Positions 7,866-38,046 of a stretch of DNA of 38,732 bases are shown one piece after another. Location of the stretch: IMG/VR virus record IMGVR_UViG_2718218126_000001; one strand, 5' to 3'. Each line of letters starts with the position of its first letter. Position 1 is the first letter of the stretch. A model generated the notes under the pieces. It was not told where the DNA came from. It ran no database searches and saw nothing but the letters and a program-made list of their open reading frames with translations. Position numbers and translations under genes: made by a program. Origin of the DNA: a virus (taxonomy: Duplodnaviria; Heunggongvirae; Uroviricota; Caudoviricetes).

Positions 7866-8789
7866 TTATTGGTTTCTGAGGAAAGCGATTCTTGAAAGGG
7901 TCATTTGCGTCTGGCAGTCGACCATTTTCTTGACTTCAGCATCTGTTCCCTGCATTGAAACTTTACCGCACATAGCATCCTTAGTTTTGATCCACTGACG
8001 CTGAGAAGGCAGCAACTCTTTTTTCTTCGCCGGCGTTAACCTGCCCCAGACTGTATTCAAATCAGAGTCAGCATTCGCAAATGCCATTCGGGACTGATCA
8101 AGGCTTTCAGCTTTTTGCGGCTGAAGTTGTGCCTGCCTCTCTATTTGCTTCTCCGCCTCATACCTGGCCTGTTCCTGTGCCCTGAGTTGCACCTGTTGTT
8201 CCGCTTCAATTTGACTCTGTTGGGCATCCTTAGCCTGCTGGATTTTCTGCTGCTCAACGATCGGGTTGATAATGGAAAGCGATGTCAGTAAAGCGGCGCC
8301 CACTGATATCGGATTATCAGAAGAGGTTTTTACAAAAACGTTTTTCTGATCGTCGGTCGCCTGCACGGTGTAGGTGATACGTTTTGAAAAGGCGTTTGCG
8401 TTGTTCTCCAAAAACAGATTTTCCATTTGCTTATCGAGATTACGATTAAAATTCTTTCTGTAAGCATCAGAAAGCTGGACGTACTCGTTCGCAGGTAGAG
8501 TCATCGTCACGGTCCCTTCACAAGTTTTCATTGTGCTGCCCGTGTCACTTGATGTTGTGGAGATTTCAGAGACGGCTAGTTTGATCTTGTCCAGTGTGCT
8601 TCGTTTGGTCTGATTAGTGACATCAGGGTATTTATCGACCTGTTCAGAGAGTCCTTCATAAGCAGATTTTTTTAATAAATCCATGAGAGCTGATTGGGTC
8701 ATTTCCGAAGAACAACCGATCTCATCTTTTTTGTTATCACAGCCTGTAAGGGCAATGGCGAGTAAGAGTACTGAGTATTTTAATCTCAT
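7866..8789 (-). CDS. Lipoprotein with C-terminal DUF1311 (LprI-like lysozyme-inhibitor) domain, putative
   Basis: 307 aa; signal peptide plus lipobox LAIALTGC; Gln-rich coiled-coil middle; C-terminal ...DLNTVWGRL...QRQWIKTKDAMC...MVDCQTQMTLSRIAFL resembles DUF1311. Confidence 0.55.
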   Translation of the reverse strand: MRLKYSVLLLAIALTGCDNKKDEIGCSSEMTQSALMDLLKKSAYEGLSEQVDKYPDVTNQTKRSTLDKIKLAVSEISTTSSDTGSTMKTCEGTVTMTLPANEYVQLSDAYRKNFNRNLDKQMENLFLENNANAFSKRITYTVQATDDQKNVFVKTSSDNPISVGAALLTSLSIINPIVEQQKIQQAKDAQQSQIEAEQQVQLRAQEQARYEAEKQIERQAQLQPQKAESLDQSRMAFANADSDLNTVWGRLTPAKKKELLPSQRQWIKTKDAMCGKVSMQGTDAEVKKMVDCQTQMTLSRIAFLRNQ

Positions 8790-9817: not shown

Positions 9818-10483
9818 ATGAAAGCCGACAACTTAAGAATTATAGAGAATGGCAAATATGTTTTCGATATGTTCTTGGATACTGGTGAATTTTACTATAC
9901 AAGTCATGCCTTTGACACGAGAGAAGATGCAAAAAGCTGGATGGAAGAATGGCAGATTTGGGCAAATAATGTATCGAGTGGGAAAGTAAGTAGTATTTAT
10001 TATATTTTACAAGTGCCTGATACTTGGGCCGGTTCTTCAGATAAAAATAACCCTTACTCGGGACTTTATGTGAAAATAGGGCGTTCCAATAATGTGCTAA
10101 AAAGGTTGTCTAACCTGCAGACAGGTGCATTTGGTCAATTAATATTACACGCTTTGGAACCAGGTGGTTCAGAAAAAGAAAACTATCTTCATGAAAAATT
10201 TAGCAACGAAAGACGTCAAGGTGAATGGTTTGTTTGTACTAAGGAACTTACCAAGCATATATTTACAACATGGTTTAAAAACAAAATGCTCCCACCAGAA
10301 CATCAAATAAAAATAATGCAGCTCGCAGAAAGAATAGGTATTTATTCGCATGTTCATACACTAATGGGGGGGAAGCCAGACTTAGTAAACCCATCTATTA
10401 GTGAACCTTGGGAATGCGAAAAATATGTTTTGGTTGATATGATTTATAGCTCTTTAGCAAAGCAAGTTAATCATAAAAAATAA
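9818..10483 (+). CDS. T5orf172 / GIY-YIG-like domain protein (putative nuclease)
   Basis: 221 aa; SSIYYILQV...GLYVKIGRSNNVLKRLSNLQTG...EKENYLHEKFSNERRQGEWF matches the GIY...YIG...R...E pattern of T5orf172/MUG113 domains. Extended -10 TGaTATAAT upstream. Confidence 0.6.
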   Translation: MKADNLRIIENGKYVFDMFLDTGEFYYTSHAFDTREDAKSWMEEWQIWANNVSSGKVSSIYYILQVPDTWAGSSDKNNPYSGLYVKIGRSNNVLKRLSNLQTGAFGQLILHALEPGGSEKENYLHEKFSNERRQGEWFVCTKELTKHIFTTWFKNKMLPPEHQIKIMQLAERIGIYSHVHTLMGGKPDLVNPSISEPWECEKYVLVDMIYSSLAKQVNHKK

Positions 10484-11317: not shown

Positions 11318-11923
11318 TTACTTGCGTTTAAAAAGGTATTTTGTCACGACCAGCACGAGGCCGAATACCTCTGTCAAAGTACCGCCCATGTACAACTGTA
11401 GTGTTAAATCCTCAAATTCCAGCTTACCTGCGCCGTCGGCAATAAATACACCATTCATTATCAGAAGTTGGCAAGCAAGGATAATCAGGAACCATTTCCC
11501 GTATCGTTTTTTTAGAGCGATTTCTGCTTCAAAATCTTTGTTGTTGAGTTGTTTGCGCTCATGCTCGGTATCAAGTGAATTCACCTGTTTCACAGATGTG
11601 AACTCGGTCAAGATTTTACTCTCAGTACGGGTGACTTGTTGAGAGGGTGTAACAGTTGGAATTCTTTTGCTAGACGCAGCTACAGCCATTTTGCGAGCTT
11701 CGGCAGCTCTTTTTCTGGCTATTCCGCGAATACGGACAGCCGTTTTTTTGGGGGCGTGCGAAACCTTTGGCTGAGGTGAAGTTTCGTCAGGAGACTGAAC
11801 CGGGGTTTCATCGTCCCCCGGCTCAACCTCTTCTGCTAACTGACGGTGTAGGTTGAGGGAATCCTTCAGTCGGCGTGCAACTTCCTGTTTGAAACGGCTG
11901 TTAAAATCGTCATCCGATGGCAT
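11318..11923 (-). CDS. Membrane-anchored protein: hydrophilic basic N-terminal region, two predicted C-terminal TM helices
   Basis: 201 aa; WFLIILACQLLIMNGVFIADGAG and TLTEVFGLVLVVTKYLF hydrophobic segments. Starts 9 nt after the peptidase stop; last 25 codons lie inside direct repeat copy B. Confidence 0.55.
   Translation of the reverse strand: MPSDDDFNSRFKQEVARRLKDSLNLHRQLAEEVEPGDDETPVQSPDETSPQPKVSHAPKKTAVRIRGIARKRAAEARKMAVAASSKRIPTVTPSQQVTRTESKILTEFTSVKQVNSLDTEHERKQLNNKDFEAEIALKKRYGKWFLIILACQLLIMNGVFIADGAGKLEFEDLTLQLYMGGTLTEVFGLVLVVTKYLFKRK
11322..11398. repeat. Direct repeat copy B (~77 bp), coding the 3' end of the membrane-protein gene
   Basis: Matches 7721..7797 with 4 mismatches and 1 indel. 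Confidence 0.8.
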
Positions 11924-11932
11924 TCTAAAGCG

Positions 11933-12421
11933 TTACCCCAACCTCAAGTTCTTTAAACGATAAGTCATCGCATCGTCAGATACGCCAAAATAATGCGCCA
12001 TTATATAACTTGGTTGGCCGTCAGCGTGCAGTTTTCTGACCTCATCAACCGGCATCAGAAGTTCTGCTGCGAACTTGTTCGCAAAAATTTCATCAGGATG
12101 CGTTCCGGCGCTTGCGGTTTCGCCACGTAAATCAACGTACTCATATTCATCACTATGCGATGCTTGCCGGGCGATGTAATGCCCCAACTCATGCCCACAT
12201 GAAAAACGTTGACGAACTTTGTTGTCATCACTGTTTAGAAAGATCGCTGGATCTTGATCTTTTTGTTTAATCAGTGCGCCAGAAACTTTCCCAGGAAGAT
12301 CGGTAATAAAAACATCTAATCCCATGTCGTGAGCAATTTTCGCTGGATCAACAGGGAAACCACGCCCGCACCAGAACGTGTCCAGCACTCGCCGGGCGTG
12401 CTCTCTTGGGTTGGTAGCCAT
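11933..12421 (-). CDS. ImmA/IrrE-family (DUF955, M78-like) zinc metallopeptidase
   Basis: 162 aa; HEXXH as CGHELGHY and downstream DEIFANKFAAELLMP, the family signature. RBS GGAGG. No fused HTH domain. Confidence 0.7.
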   Translation of the reverse strand: MATNPREHARRVLDTFWCGRGFPVDPAKIAHDMGLDVFITDLPGKVSGALIKQKDQDPAIFLNSDDNKVRQRFSCGHELGHYIARQASHSDEYEYVDLRGETASAGTHPDEIFANKFAAELLMPVDEVRKLHADGQPSYIMAHYFGVSDDAMTYRLKNLRLG

Positions 12422-14435: not shown

Positions 14436-15032
14436 ATGGCGCAGCATTCATTTATCAGGGTATCCGGCGGTTCGCTAATACCCGCGACACCAGACACGCA
14501 ACGCTGGTTGACTGAACGAGTCAAACCAGGTGCTGTTGTGTATGCAGATTTCAAACAGGCACGTAATCCCGCGTTTCACCGTAAATTTTTCTCACTTCTC
14601 AACCTGGGCTTTGATTACTGGCATCCGTCCGGAGGGGCTATTTCTCCTGCGGAGCGAGAACTGGTCCACGGCTACGTTAAGTTACTGGCGTATTACGGTG
14701 GGCATGGTGATGTCATGGCTGAGCTGGCTGATCAGTATCTTCTCGATGAGTCGGAAAAGCGCGCGGGGAATATCAGTGCGGTGAAGTCGTTCGAGGCGTT
14801 TCGCGCCTGGGCGACTATGGAATCTGGATTTTATGACGTTCATCAGATGCCAGATGGTAGTTTGATGCGTGTACCTCGTTCAATCTCGTTTGCTGCGATG
14901 GACGATCTTGAGTTCGGTCAACTGTATTCAGCCGTTTTAGATGTGCTGTGGAATTATATTTTGTTCCGCACGTTTGCCTCTCAGGAGGCCGCTGAAAATG
15001 CTGCCGCGCAGCTGTTGGATTACACATCATGA
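14436..15032 (+). CDS. nin-region phage protein, DUF1367-like (putative)
   Basis: 198 aa; RBS GGAG; position upstream of Q. Family assignment from memory of lambdoid nin-region proteins. Confidence 0.5.
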   Translation: MAQHSFIRVSGGSLIPATPDTQRWLTERVKPGAVVYADFKQARNPAFHRKFFSLLNLGFDYWHPSGGAISPAERELVHGYVKLLAYYGGHGDVMAELADQYLLDESEKRAGNISAVKSFEAFRAWATMESGFYDVHQMPDGSLMRVPRSISFAAMDDLEFGQLYSAVLDVLWNYILFRTFASQEAAENAAAQLLDYTS

Positions 15033-18227: not shown

Positions 18228-18398
18228 TTACATGAGCTAACCGGGACTGGGCTTGAGCTTCAGAAGCGATTCCTGTCCGAGTACGTCAAATCATGTGTAT
18301 CACCGAAAGAATGGTGTGACGCGCAGGGACTGAGCTTCGCAACAGCTCGCCGACGTATAAAAAACAACTGCGCAATGTGCCAAAGAGCTGGTGGCTGA
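18228..18398 (+). pseudogene. Remnant of a terminase-small-subunit-like N-terminus (frame-disrupted, no in-frame start)
   Basis: Open frame ...TGLELQKRFLSEYVKSCVSPKEWCDAQGLSFATARRRIK; the ATG at 18232 is out of frame and followed by TAA. Confidence 0.3.
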
Positions 18399-28979: not shown

Positions 28980-29321
28980 ATGCTTGGAATGGACCGTAAC
29001 ACTGGTAAACCTTTATCCGGGGTTGACCACATTTGTCAGTCTATCGTTGATATTTTAACGACCCCGCTGGGAACCCGTGTAATGCTGCCGGAATATGGGA
29101 GCAAATTATTTGACCTCGTTGATAATCCCACAGATCCATCACTGGCTATACGGATAATCATGGAAAGTGCTGGCGCAATAGCACGCTGGGAACCACGCGT
29201 CAGAATTGACAGAATAAATGTGTTAGCAGTGGATATCGGGAAAATAACAATATTAATTATCGCAACAGATATCGAAACACAACAGCGATTAGAGTTTAAT
29301 AATATGGAGCTGATATTTTGA
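28980..29321 (+). CDS. Baseplate protein W (P2 gpW / gp25-like)
   Basis: ATG at 28980 just after the V stop; MLGMDRNTGKPLSG...LPEYGS...RWEPRV typical of gpW. Confidence 0.8.
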   Translation: MLGMDRNTGKPLSGVDHICQSIVDILTTPLGTRVMLPEYGSKLFDLVDNPTDPSLAIRIIMESAGAIARWEPRVRIDRINVLAVDIGKITILIIATDIETQQRLEFNNMELIF

Positions 29322-34483: not shown

Positions 34484-36124
34484 ATGGCTATTTCTCAAAA
34501 CTTTAAAACGCAGGTTGTATTTGGGGGGAGAATAGACCCGTCGTTTCGGCGCGGTACAACAGAACTCAACGATGCAATTCGGCAGACGTCGTCTACTGTC
34601 GGAAAATTAACGAAAAGCCAGGATAAATTAAAAGACAAAATCGCAGCAATGAAACTGGCGGGTAAAGACGTTTCTGATTTATCTGCTCAGTATCAAAAGC
34701 TGGACCGTCGGATAAAAGCGACAACACAGGACCAGGAAGCTCTGAATACTCAGCTCGCCAAAAAACAGCGGCTGGAGAAGTGGACGGGGCGCGCAAAAGG
34801 TGCTGCAAAATGGGGAGGGCGAGCCGCCGCAGGTGCGGTGAGGGCCACGGGACGGGGTATCAAATGGGGGACGCTGGGGGCCGTGGGTCTGCTCGGCGGC
34901 GCGGCTGCTGGCGCGTTGGCAATGAATGCAGAGACGTCAGAAAAACTCGGTCTGGCGAAGTCCTACGGTGTTGGCATCGAAAAATACGCTGCGTGGGAAA
35001 ATATTGGTAAAGCTGCAGGGCTGAATGGCGAAAACGTAGGAGATCTGTCGGAGGAGTTGACTAATAAAATCGGGGAGGTTGGAAACGAAAAAAACCTGAA
35101 CCCCATGTTGTTTCAAATTGGCCTGACAAAAAAACGGATGGCTAAATGGGATCGAGAAAAACAGTTCAATGAAGTTATGCGGCGTATCTCTGAAATGAAG
35201 GATGATCAACAGGCGGCGAGTCTGGCTGATCAGCTCATGGGGGGGGAAGCTAATAAAATAATGACTTATATGCGGGCGACTGGTAAAAGCTGGGAGCAGA
35301 CTCTGTCGGACGCTCAAAAATCAAACCTGCTAACGAAAGAAGGGGCTGAGGGTGCAGCGCGCGCGCACGTATCCGTCACGAATCTGTGGGGGGCAATCAC
35401 ATCGGGGCTGGCAGATACTCTCGGGAAAATCGGAGGGGAACTCGCGCCGACGTTTGACGCTATGCGAGACGGGCTGGCATCCTGGTTTAAAGAGAATCAA
35501 GGGGGGGTTGTTGATAGTATTAAAGAATGGGTTAAGCCAGAAAATATGAAAAAAATGTGGGAGGGGATAGTCAGTTTTGGCGAGGCGTGCGTTAAATTCG
35601 GAAAAATAATTTGGGCAGTCGTAAAAAAACTGGAGTGGTTAATACCAGACGAGAAAACAGACGAGGAACAGCGCGTATATAACGAAGAATATAATAAAGC
35701 GTATCAGGAATTCATGGATAGTGGTGGTAAATATTCACCGAACCCAGGACTGGCAGCAGATAATGTAGCAAAAGCAAAAGCCGACGAAGCCGTCGATAAT
35801 ATGCGGCACCCTGAACGTCTTGCTCGTGCAAAATCACAGGCTGAATCAATGCTCTCGTTTGCTAACCCGTTTACTGGATTAATAAATAAAGACTCAACGC
35901 CTGAATCACAAAACTCAGCAACGTTGAATATTGACGCGCTGAGACAGGCAGTCGCAACTCCAGCGCCAGAGCAAAACAATAAAATTGAAATCAATATTAT
36001 CGGAGCGGCAGATCCACAATCAACACAGCAGGCTGCTGCATCGGGTGTGCTCGACGGGCTGAGACAAGTTGCGAGTTCGTACAACCGTGGTGCAATGTTT
36101 GATAAACCAGCGGCGGCGGGGTGA
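34484..36124 (+). CDS. Tail tape measure protein
   Basis: 546 aa, coiled-coil and Gly-rich segments; position after the chaperone. Confidence 0.85.
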   Translation: MAISQNFKTQVVFGGRIDPSFRRGTTELNDAIRQTSSTVGKLTKSQDKLKDKIAAMKLAGKDVSDLSAQYQKLDRRIKATTQDQEALNTQLAKKQRLEKWTGRAKGAAKWGGRAAAGAVRATGRGIKWGTLGAVGLLGGAAAGALAMNAETSEKLGLAKSYGVGIEKYAAWENIGKAAGLNGENVGDLSEELTNKIGEVGNEKNLNPMLFQIGLTKKRMAKWDREKQFNEVMRRISEMKDDQQAASLADQLMGGEANKIMTYMRATGKSWEQTLSDAQKSNLLTKEGAEGAARAHVSVTNLWGAITSGLADTLGKIGGELAPTFDAMRDGLASWFKENQGGVVDSIKEWVKPENMKKMWEGIVSFGEACVKFGKIIWAVVKKLEWLIPDEKTDEEQRVYNEEYNKAYQEFMDSGGKYSPNPGLAADNVAKAKADEAVDNMRHPERLARAKSQAESMLSFANPFTGLINKDSTPESQNSATLNIDALRQAVATPAPEQNNKIEINIIGAADPQSTQQAAASGVLDGLRQVASSYNRGAMFDKPAAAG

Positions 36125-36126
36125 CA

Positions 36127-36549
36127 ATGAGTGATGCAACAAACGGTGCTGAGGACATTATGCTCGGCCTGGGTGATTTCATTTTTGCTATATCAACAAT
36201 AGCGTACAACAAACTGCAACGTAGTGACGCCTGGCGCTGGGCTCAGCAAACACGGTTCGGAAAAAACGACGCATTGCAGATAACCGGACGACCGAACCCC
36301 ACAATCACGATCGATGGGAAAATAAATGCCTTATTCCTTGATGGGTGCGGCATTGGCTTGTTAACAGATTTGCGGGCACTGGGGAACTCGGGAGAACCCC
36401 AGCAACTGGTGCTGGGGACCGGGGAGGTGAAGGGGTACTGGGTTATCAGGGAGTTAACAGAAACGCAAAACAGTTTTCTGAAAGGAGGGACCCCAAAATC
36501 GCAGGACTTTTCACTCACGCTCGAATATTACGGAGCTTCGCTGGATTGA
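36127..36549 (+). CDS. Tail protein U (P2 gpU-like)
   Basis: LGLGDFIFAISTIAYNKLQRSDAWRWA resembles the P2 U N-terminus. Confidence 0.8.
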   Translation: MSDATNGAEDIMLGLGDFIFAISTIAYNKLQRSDAWRWAQQTRFGKNDALQITGRPNPTITIDGKINALFLDGCGIGLLTDLRALGNSGEPQQLVLGTGEVKGYWVIRELTETQNSFLKGGTPKSQDFSLTLEYYGASLD

Positions 36550-36770
36550 ACTTCTTTCGGTTTTTTATCACCGAGAGCGGACCACAGCAACAGAATGATC
36601 CACATCAAAAATATCCATCCGAATAATATATTCAGAATAACGACCATTGCGCAGCTTTTATGTCCCCTTATTAGAGCAATTACTAACGGTATTACGTATA
36701 AAATGATGGATATTAACGGGTTCGCCATTAACCATATATACAGAGCGATAACCCACGCAAATAATTCCAT
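36528..36770 (-). CDS. Small two-TM membrane protein, superinfection-immunity (Imm)-like, antisense within the tail operon
   Basis: 80 aa from the ATG with GAGG RBS (ORF reaches 36788). IRGHKSCAMVVILNILFGWIFLMWIILLLWSAL resembles the Imm_superinfect pattern; local AT-richness. Confidence 0.5.
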   Translation of the reverse strand: MELFAWVIALYIWLMANPLISIILYVIPLVIALIRGHKSCAMVVILNILFGWIFLMWIILLLWSALGDKKPKEVQSSEAP

Positions 36771-36786
36771 TTGAGGCCTCATAATC

Positions 36787-36999
36787 ATGATTACATATAC
36801 GACGCGGGACGGTGACCGTCTCGATCAAATCTGCTTTGCGGTCTACGGGAGAGCGTCAAAAACGACAGAGACTGTTTTATATCAGGTTTCGAATTACGGC
36901 GTAACTGATATGTGTGCCGTGTTTCGTGCTGGAGAAAAAATTGTTTTACCAGAAATCGAACCAGAACCGGTTAAAAAAGAAACGCAATTATGGGATTGA
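36787..36999 (+). CDS. Tail protein X (P2 gpX-like)
   Basis: 70 aa; RDGDRLDQICFAVYGR...ETVLYQ resembles the P2 X pattern. Confidence 0.8.
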   Translation: MITYTTRDGDRLDQICFAVYGRASKTTETVLYQVSNYGVTDMCAVFRAGEKIVLPEIEPEPVKKETQLWD

Positions 37000-37002
37000 T
37001 GA

Positions 37003-38046
37003 ATGGGTGATTACGTAAATACTGGCGTGGAGGCGTGGAAACCTAATTTTTATATATCTGCTGATAATAAAAACATCACGGATAAAATAAGAAAAGGGCT
37101 GATCAATATCACGCTGACTGATTATGGCGGCTCCAGTAAACAGACAGACGAACTCCGCGTAGCAATAGTTTCTGAAACTCTGAAAATTCCGGCCCGTGGA
37201 GTGAAAATTAGCATTGGGCTCGGTTTTGGTAATCAGATAATCGATAAAGGTATATACATCGTCGACGGGGCGAGCAGTGGCGGTGAACCTCGGGTAGTTG
37301 ATTTCACAGCAAAAGCGGCTCCGATGAACGCGTCAAAGGGCTCTCCGACAGTTCAGAGCAAAAAGACGCGCTCATGGAGCGACGTCACCGTCAGCGATAT
37401 CGTTGCGACAATAGCGAGTGATAACGGGCTAAAACCACGCGTATCAAAGCGGTTTGCAAACAATGTTATCACGCAACTCGATCAGGTCGGCGAGTCAGAT
37501 ATGCACCTGATGTCGCGGCTCGCAACGAGATTCGATGCGGTGAGTAAACCCGCGGGCGGGTACTGGATATTCCTGCCGCGCGGCGCGGGCGAATCTGTTA
37601 GCGGAGCACCGCTTCAGCACTACACGCTCACGCGTCGTGATAACTCCAGCTGGGGTTATTCGAGAAATGGACAAAACGGCGATAGTGGCGGAGGTGGCGA
37701 AAATGCGGAACCAACATATCTGATCAAATATCACGATACAGCAACGGGGCAGATCAAAGAATTGCGTACGGGCAGTGGCGGCGATCCTGTAATCGAGTGG
37801 CCGGCAGTGGAGCCGTCGCTTGATGCAGCGAAAGAAGCTGCGCCAGGACTCAAGGGCGGTGCGGCTAAAAAAGAGTTTTCCATGACGTACACAACGCCAG
37901 CAACGCTCGATTTAGTATCGCTGACTGCAGAATGCAAAGTCACAACACAAGGGTTCGGGACAGAGGAGGACCGAGACTGGACAATCAATACGTTGACGCT
38001 GACGCTGGCTGAAAACGGATTCTCTGCGCGACTGTCGCTGGAGTAA
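37003..38046 (+). CDS. Tail protein D (P2 gpD-like, late control D family)
   Basis: 347 aa; position after U and X as in P2-like and R-pyocin tail clusters. Confidence 0.8.
   Translation: MGDYVNTGVEAWKPNFYISADNKNITDKIRKGLINITLTDYGGSSKQTDELRVAIVSETLKIPARGVKISIGLGFGNQIIDKGIYIVDGASSGGEPRVVDFTAKAAPMNASKGSPTVQSKKTRSWSDVTVSDIVATIASDNGLKPRVSKRFANNVITQLDQVGESDMHLMSRLATRFDAVSKPAGGYWIFLPRGAGESVSGAPLQHYTLTRRDNSSWGYSRNGQNGDSGGGGENAEPTYLIKYHDTATGQIKELRTGSGGDPVIEWPAVEPSLDAAKEAAPGLKGGAAKKEFSMTYTTPATLDLVSLTAECKVTTQGFGTEEDRDWTINTLTLTLAENGFSARLSLE

Follow-up and report, generated by a model that had tools for sequence, protein, structure and literature searches.

What is a single leftward gene doing inside a rightward tail operon of a temperate phage, and when would such a gene be expressed? 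The question is raised by IMG/VR virus record IMGVR_UViG_2718218126_000001 (Caudoviricetes), a stretch of 38,732 nucleotides that was analysed as a whole and is called the window below. In it, the tail genes U and X are separated by a gap of 237 bp, which is occupied on the opposite strand by a small gene, here designated imm. Escherichia coli strain E62 carries, next to yodB, a prophage with which the window shares 100% identity. This prophage is a mosaic, with regulation of the CI/Cro/Q type, a lambda-like head, and a contractile tail. Its tail genes follow the order sheath-tube-assembly-T-U-[imm]-X-D-fibre, which apart from imm is that of phiCTX and of the R-pyocins. A first-pass annotation of the window had described imm as a leftward gene in an otherwise rightward late operon, and imm alone is indeed opposite in strand to all the structural genes. 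The answer that appears moderately probable is that its product of 80 amino acids (aa) is an inner-membrane protein of the Imm family, carried as antisense cargo between U and X and expressed in the lysogen, where it would block DNA entry by superinfecting phages by way of their tape measure protein.

The first-pass annotation had proposed that the whole gap corresponds to an opposite-strand open reading frame (ORF) encoding 80-86 aa. This ORF was confirmed at 36528..36788 on the minus strand; it encodes 86 aa, its translation includes the motif IRGHKSCAMVVILNILFGWIFLMWIILLLWSAL that had been quoted, and it overlaps the start of X by 2 nt. The GAGG ribosome-binding site that had been pointed out before an internal ATG is also real. 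This Shine-Dalgarno (SD) motif lies at 36780-36777 and is separated by a 6-nt spacer from the ATG at 36770, which corresponds to Met7 of the ORF. An ATG-GAA start preceded at 5-8 nt by a purine-rich SD sequence is kept in all eight lineages examined, whereas the six-codon, in-frame upstream extension MIMRPQ (36771..36788, minus strand), which makes up the 86-aa ORF, is not conserved in the lineages of loci L009 (E. coli) or L006 (Salmonella) and is probably a 5' leader rather than coding sequence. Moreover, 17 relatives of the protein were found among the 5.8 billion proteins searched, and the majority of them are 80 aa long and start at the equivalent of Met7. Given the conserved start and SD sequence, the lack of conservation of the extension, and the length of most database entries, the true start is almost certainly Met7, and the product 80 aa (36770..36528, stop codon included).

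The two ends of the gene are closely interlocked with its neighbours. Upstream, the GAGG motif belongs to a palindrome read from the sequence, GAGGCCTC (36773..36780), which places the motif 6 nt before the ATG of imm on the minus strand and 10 nt before the ATG of X on the plus strand. This palindrome was found only in the window and in locus L013 from Escherichia whittamii, the other lineages having non-palindromic SD motifs. Downstream, imm and U overlap convergently by 22 nt (36528..36549), so that the last six codons and the stop codon of imm are antisense to the final codons of U. The overlap measures 22 nt in the L009 lineage and 19 nt in the L006 lineage. Past about residue 70, the C-terminus is different, in a frameshift-like manner, in some database variants.

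The length of the ORF alone is weak evidence that imm is a gene, since 106 out of 5000 shuffles of its 261 nt also yielded an 86-codon open frame. It is rather the profile match presented below, together with purifying selection, that establishes it. In a codon-level comparison of the window with the E. coli homologue of 81% protein identity, 46.7 of 51 synonymous sites and 19.3 of 189 non-synonymous sites differ, which corresponds to a ratio of non-synonymous to synonymous change (pN/pS) of about 0.11. In the same comparison with the Salmonella homologue, synonymous sites are saturated and pN/pS is about 0.26. The constraint is of the same order as that on U and X. The frame is intact, and the SD sequence and start are kept, from 93% down to about 40% identity, and the alignment of the 17 relatives contains 23 invariant and 20 nearly invariant positions. 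Thus, imm is a real gene under strong purifying selection. A non-coding spacer of the same sequence with a disrupted frame, which the first-pass annotation had named as one observation that would count against its reading, was not encountered in related phages; the slot instead contains homologues of 93%, 81%, and 72% identity. A plus-strand ORF of 59 aa inside the gap (36595..36774) was also considered and was rejected as a shadow of imm, its length not being conserved and the pattern of selection fitting the imm frame. An Rfam search over 36300-37000 gave zero matches.

The resemblance to small Imm-type exclusion proteins, which had first been proposed from a motif, holds in profile and pairwise searches. 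The protein matches PF14373 (Imm_superinfect) with 42.5 bits, against a gathering cutoff of 27.9 (E 5.8e-11), over profile positions 1-41 of 42, and it matches PHROG 1039, 'immunity to superinfection' (3.2e-14). A BLASTP comparison with Imm of phage T4 gave 34% identity and 62% positives over 65 aa (E 5e-13), with an ungapped core. In T4 Imm, the substitutions R33A and W50A lower exclusion (preprint 10.64898/2026.03.06.709160). In the pairwise alignment, the counterparts of these two residues in the 80-aa protein are R35 and W52, both of which are invariant in the 17-sequence family alignment.

With 80 aa, the protein falls within the size class of small integral membrane Imm proteins (about 80-95 aa). 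Its hydropathy profile shows two hydrophobic blocks (KD15 peaks 2.5-3.0), and an AlphaFold2 (AF2) model of moderate confidence (pLDDT 69.5, pTM 0.36) consists of helices 2-16, 18-35, and 38-66 followed by a charged, disordered tail, into which the residues overlapping U fall. The label of a protein with two transmembrane segments (two-TM), used in the first-pass annotation, therefore agrees with the hydropathy blocks and departs from the three helices of the predicted model, and can be kept as a fair approximation. Distant members of the subfamily (P0018-P0026, from loci L047-L052) have C-terminal extensions of 30-55 residues, whereas the tail of the window protein counts just 14. These extensions consist either of a highly charged Glu/Arg/Lys-rich segment (e.g. 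EEQYRKAREREEQARARMRDMYN) or of a CxxC...CxxC pattern resembling a zinc ribbon.

PF14373 was the sole Pfam family matched by the protein at E <= 0.1, which leaves no match to the YebO family, and neither Pfam nor PHROGs contained a holin or toxin family matching it. A profile search of 1.84 billion representatives recovered 3835 clusters (50% identity) at E <= 0.001 and just 10 at E <= 1e-10. Judging from these counts, the PF14373 domain is very widespread and the full-length subfamily of the window protein narrow. Searches of PDB sequences and of plasmids with imm returned zero matches, and tblastn against isolated phages returned nothing at E <= 1e-3 and, at E <= 10, only weak matches to the imm genes of T-even phages. 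The gene is carried by no isolated phage record. Finally, a literature search found no publication on an Imm homologue in a prophage or in a tail operon. The window gene is an uncharacterised member of a known family and not a new kind of system, since RefSeq already gives it the correct family name.

How, then, did an Imm gene come to lie between U and X? The cassette, defined as the 237 bp from the stop codon of U to the start codon of X (36550..36786), is AT-rich compared with the flanking tail genes, as had been noted: its GC content is 0.38, versus 0.50 for U, 0.43 for X, 0.49 for T, and 0.51 for D. In about 435 further E. coli genomes and in four induced phages (vB_EcoM-569R10 and relatives), U and X are about 92% identical to those of the window, and an unrelated sequence of 173 bp lies between them. 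Homology to this alternative allele stops exactly at the stop codon of U and restarts at the start codon of X, that is, at the edges of the cassette. The 173-bp allele carries an antisense ORF of 44 aa, which is disrupted in locus L022. In IMG/VR locus L036, where the gap measures 1274 bp, lies an antisense, membrane-anchored ORF of 176 aa, with the N-terminus of which the 44-aa ORF shares homology (60% identity, E 5e-15). The 44-aa ORF is therefore more likely a truncated remnant of an ORF of that type, and the possibility that it is an independent small gene was set aside. Locus L036 also contains a second antisense ORF, of 220 aa, with an N-terminal hydrophobic segment. At the junction of locus L035, yet another insert is found, of 599 bp. 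The cargo intervals are located at 3551-3723 of L004, 2558-2692 of L001, 1227-2500 of L036, and 1902-2500 of L035. The alternative cargoes (173-bp allele, L036, and L035) gave no match in Pfam, PHROGs, or PADLOC.

By contrast, just 11-47 nt separate U from X in more distant tail clusters (L037, L038, and L040-L045), versus 237 nt in the window, and no Imm was found within 2.5 kb in these gapless clusters. The cassette also reassorts with respect to its flanks, as illustrated by locus L016, whose U is 98.6% identical to that of the window and which nevertheless has the 44-aa allele. Since U and X abut in distant clusters and other enteric lineages hold unrelated antisense cargo at the same place, the U-X junction is an insertion hot-spot for cargo. 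The same abutting of U and X, the difference in GC content, and the sharing of the junction by unrelated cassettes support the view that imm is accessory cargo of a moron-like kind.

Within E. coli, imm is present in 17 of 5,426 complete genomes, including E24377A and SE11, and always between U and X; the copies are at least 99% identical. RefSeq annotates 16 of the 17 as 'superinfection immunity protein', the 86-aa entry WP_000605931.1 being assigned to DNA identical to that of E62 in 16 other genomes. In E62 itself, PGAP calls just a 39-aa C-terminal fragment (WP_433961560.1, 'hypothetical protein'), at 36528-36647 of the window, equivalent to NZ_CP022393.1 3712190-3712309. Among the matches listed for complete E. 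coli genomes, the imm copies are 100% identical over 261 nt; the flanking 1.3 kb (36000-37300) are at least 99% identical in 5 genomes only and 95-99% identical in 13. This greater uniformity of the cassette than of its flanks suggests a recent spread by recombination.

On a longer time scale, the Imm subfamily is stably linked to the tail module. Homologues of 93% (E. whittamii, L013), 81% (E. coli, L009-L011 and L023/L034), and 72% identity (Salmonella, L006-L008) are found at the same place between U and X, likewise in antisense orientation, in prophages located at different chromosomal integration sites. More distant members (about 35-49% identity) are likewise antisense and adjoin the T-U-X-D module at other positions. 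For P0019 and P0020, imm lies directly downstream of D, and U and X abut. For P0023, its neighbours are the tape measure gene and X, and a gpU gene could not be detected. For P0018, it adjoins X, the gene on its other side having no match to the gpU profile and no gpU being detectable in this short contig of 1.1 kb. In two of the more distant lineages (L052 1713-3881 and L047 29-1146), the tape measure gene and X flank the Imm gene, and searches by tblastn and with Pfam gave no gpU homologue there. A pattern scan of genome contigs with the Imm alignment gave two loci only, the patterns being too specific. Imm identity correlates with that of T, X, and D about equally (Spearman rho 0.71-0.74). 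This shows a long co-inheritance of the Imm subfamily with the tail module.

The module also includes a gene of the class that would provide the target of an Imm-type exclusion protein. Gene T (34484..36124, plus strand), between the tail assembly gene and the gpU gene, encodes a tape measure protein of 546 aa, assigned to PHROG 3654 with weak tape-measure matches and belonging to the hypothesised target class. It contains at aa 126-150 (34859-34933) a Gly/Ala-rich hydrophobic segment, WGTLGAVGLLGGAAAGALAMNA, which may correspond to a helix that inserts into the membrane. Among the tail proteins, the tape measure protein diverges fastest in every comparison, with identities of 89%, 72%, and 54%, versus 96-98%, 85-87%, and 64-83% for U, X, and D.

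The following mechanism is proposed. The gene would be carried as antisense accessory cargo by a contractile-tail module of the phiCTX/P2 type, within a lambdoid E. coli prophage that is a mosaic. As it runs against the late operon, it cannot be co-transcribed with the tail genes, and most likely it therefore has its own expression in the lysogen, at a time when the late operon is silent. Lodged in the cytoplasmic membrane, the protein would halt superinfecting phages when their DNA is to enter the cell, thereby conferring an exclusion phenotype on the lysogen. For T4, co-purification of Imm with gp29, the tape measure protein, and a block of genome translocation by Imm are reported (preprint 10.64898/2026.03.06.709160). 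By analogy, we infer that the prophage protein would bind the tape measure protein of an incoming phage, so that no channel would be opened in the inner membrane.

Expression in the lysogen would require a promoter, and its position is tightly constrained. Since only 16 nt separate the start of imm from that of X, the promoter must be located inside X or further upstream. A position weight matrix (PWM) scan proposed a candidate antisense promoter inside X (36876..36905, minus strand), unverified, with a weak -35 element GTTACG (36905-36900), an 18-nt spacer, and an extended -10 element TGaTATAAA (36884-36876). This -10 element lies about 106 nt upstream of the start of imm and recurs in all lineages bearing imm or the 44-aa allele.

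Several results weigh against the exclusion mechanism or parts of it. With regard to expression, a scan of the minus strand upstream of imm for a strict consensus promoter found none, and no convincing sigma-70 promoter is present there. The X codons TTA-TAT-CAG behind the candidate -10 element are also kept in gapless lineages, so that the motif is not evidence of selection by the cargo; it may at most be an antisense promoter that was there beforehand and renders the site receptive. No terminator-like site was found 3' of imm on the minus strand, where the RNA shows no better folding than shuffled sequences do (z = 0.21). With regard to the target, the equal correlation of Imm with T, X, and D contains no signal specific to the tape measure, and between the tape measure protein of the prophage and T4 gp29 no similarity could be detected, so that the target cannot be transferred from T4 by homology. 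With regard to the family, neither NCBIfam nor PADLOC has a model matching the protein, and T4 Imm is the only family member that has been characterised. Many proteins of the PF14373 type are probably not in phages, and given the very large size of the family, the domain may not always serve exclusion.

As far as is visible, the cassette does not appear to be a self-contained transcription unit, since it leaves no room for a promoter, the imm frame ends within U, and a terminator could not be identified. This qualifies the designation of imm as a moron, which had been made on account of its leftward orientation. The insertion between adjacent genes, the GC shift, and the unrelated cassettes at the same junction bear it out, and a promoter and terminator of its own could not be shown. 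The classical morons of lambdoid phages, as defined by Juhala et al. 2000 (cited in PMC3594210), resemble the window cassette in being inserted between otherwise adjacent genes, with deviant GC content and a patchy distribution; they differ from it in that the window cassette has no room for a promoter, a stop codon inside U, and no terminator that could be found.

Among known exclusion systems, T4 Imm (P08986) has 83 aa, versus 80 aa here, and shares the succession of hydrophobic helices and a short charged tail. Its genetic setting is quite different: T4 is a virulent phage in which imm is expressed early, is located between genes 42 and 43 amid DNA-metabolism genes, and is unlinked to gene 29, whereas the window gene belongs to a temperate prophage and lies antisense in the tail operon, two genes from the tape measure gene. 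As the tape measure proteins of T4 and of the prophage are unrelated in sequence, the target specificity of the two Imm proteins must differ. In a temperate phage, the closest functional precedent is HK97 gp15, a YebO-like exclusion moron of the inner membrane that blocks DNA entry and whose specificity maps to the tail of the incoming phage (Cumby et al. 2012, summarised in PMC3594210). Like the product of imm, it is a small protein of the inner membrane, and its gene is an AT-shifted insertion in the tail operon of a lambdoid prophage, adjoining the tape measure gene (PMC3594210). Unlike imm, it comes from a siphovirus, lies between the tail chaperone and tape measure genes, and is described there with its own promoter and terminator (PMC3594210), whereas for imm the tail is contractile, the position is U-X, and no promoter or terminator was found; the two proteins have no sequence relationship. 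SieA of P22 and other such proteins are also prophage-expressed inner-membrane proteins that block entry of the superinfecting genome (PMC10883804, PMC3594210). They differ from imm in that profile searches gave no sequence relationship, SieA not having been compared directly.

Other explanations of the gene have to be weighed against lysogenic exclusion. The one that survives best, unlikely as it is, takes the protein for a genuine Imm-family membrane protein with another role, either lysogenic conversion acting on the host envelope or self-protection, the lysogen being spared from killing by free tail particles or defective virions of its own type. Such a role would be compatible with the very wide distribution of PF14373 over 3835 clusters, function having been tested for T4 Imm alone, and the persistent tie of the subfamily to a contractile-tail module also fits self-protection against that tail. 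The extra C-terminal domains of the distant members, charged coils or CxxC...CxxC, suggest additional activities as well. Yet both residues needed for exclusion in T4 are invariant in the window family, protection from particles of its own type would itself be exclusion at the level of entry, and no positive evidence for another function was obtained.

An improbable alternative is that imm acts in the phage's own lytic cycle, closing the cell to further injections as the early-expressed imm of T4 does. T4 Imm indeed works in this way (preprint 10.64898/2026.03.06.709160), and no promoter of lysogenic type could be shown for the window gene. However, imm runs against the late operon at a distance of about 20 kb from the early region, and if transcribed in lytic growth it would meet strong late transcription head-on. 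Furthermore, the gene has remained antisense in all the lineages and slots that were examined, as expected if the gene is expressed when the late genes are silent.

Far less probable still is a small membrane toxin or a holin-like lysis factor, for example a type I toxin under the control of the antisense late-operon RNA. The small size of the protein, its strong hydrophobicity and charged C-terminal tail, the complete overlap of the gene by an antisense transcript, and the impaired growth caused by overexpressed T4 Imm (preprint 10.64898/2026.03.06.709160) would all suit such a factor; against it, the match above threshold is to Imm, with none to holins or toxins in Pfam or PHROGs, and lysis is already provided for by a cassette of the prophage that comprises two holin genes and an endolysin gene and lies about 20 kb from imm. 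Lastly, a chance open frame or decaying remnant in an AT-rich spacer, to which the roughly 2% of equally open shuffles, the 39-aa call by PGAP in E62, and the remnant-like neighbouring allele might have pointed, is effectively refuted by the Pfam match above the gathering threshold, purifying selection with saturated synonymous sites, a frame, SD sequence, and start kept to about 40% identity, and 17 copies at least 99% identical.

The genes around imm are assigned as follows. On its 3' side lies the gpU tail gene (36121..36549, plus strand; PF06995, E 1.2e-32), and on its 5' side the gene for tail protein X (36787..36999, plus strand; PF05489, E 6.7e-15), which is followed by a gpD-like late control or baseplate hub gene (37003..38046, plus strand), identified by a weak PF05954 match and by the PGAP annotation. 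Elsewhere in the window, between about 7866 and 12421, the early region contains genes that are likely accessory (about 7866-8789, minus strand; 9818-10483, plus strand; 11318-12421, minus strand); the annotation of E62 gives there an LprI-family lysozyme inhibitor, a GIY-YIG nuclease, and an ImmA/IrrE metallopeptidase with an adjacent hypothetical gene.

The phage family to which the window belongs, and imm itself, are also recorded in CRISPR arrays. In the type I-E CRISPR-I array of E. coli N18-04097 (L053 563-1567, NZ_CP047277.1), 4 of the 16 spacers are directed against this family, all with canonical protospacer-adjacent motifs (PAMs). Three of them match the window at 14787-14818, 18296-18327, and 29098-29129, with 1-2 mismatches and the PAMs AAG, ATG, and ATG, respectively. 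The fourth corresponds to codons 2-12 of the imm allele of 81% identity, with 32 of 32 positions matching (L009 6004-6035), and its PAM is the ATG start codon of imm; the window allele differs from this spacer at 9 of the 32 positions. Matches of 33-36 nt (95-100%) to this segment of the 81% allele occur in annotated CRISPR arrays of 37 of the 5,426 complete E. coli genomes, and the allele itself is absent from all 37.

A wider hypothesis, advanced here tentatively and considered unlikely as a whole, is that the T-U-X-D module with its U-X junction forms a site for antisense cargo read from a promoter embedded in X, in which Imm variants are matched to their own tape measure and would close the lysogen to heteroimmune phages sharing the same tail. 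If true, it would, together with the T4 Imm-gp29 pair and HK97 gp15, suggest as a general rule that entry-blocking exclusion proteins target tape measures and that in temperate phages they are linked to the very tape measure allele that they neutralise.

The interest of the locus lies in the antisense cargo hot-spot, in the attachment of Imm to a module containing the tape measure gene, and in the allele series that nature provides. Two alleles occur at one junction in prophages that are otherwise about 92% identical, Imm alleles of 93%, 81%, and 72% identity are associated with tape measures diverging down to 54%, and lysogens such as E24377A and SE11 carry the gene, which makes specificity-swap experiments straightforward. 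Genes of this kind affect host range in phage therapy, and their annotation is inconsistent, as the 39-aa fragment called in E62 illustrates. Should imm indeed exclude phages, the T4 Imm family would gain its first member from a temperate phage in a defined setting, and the recently proposed Imm-tape measure mechanism would become testable outside T4.

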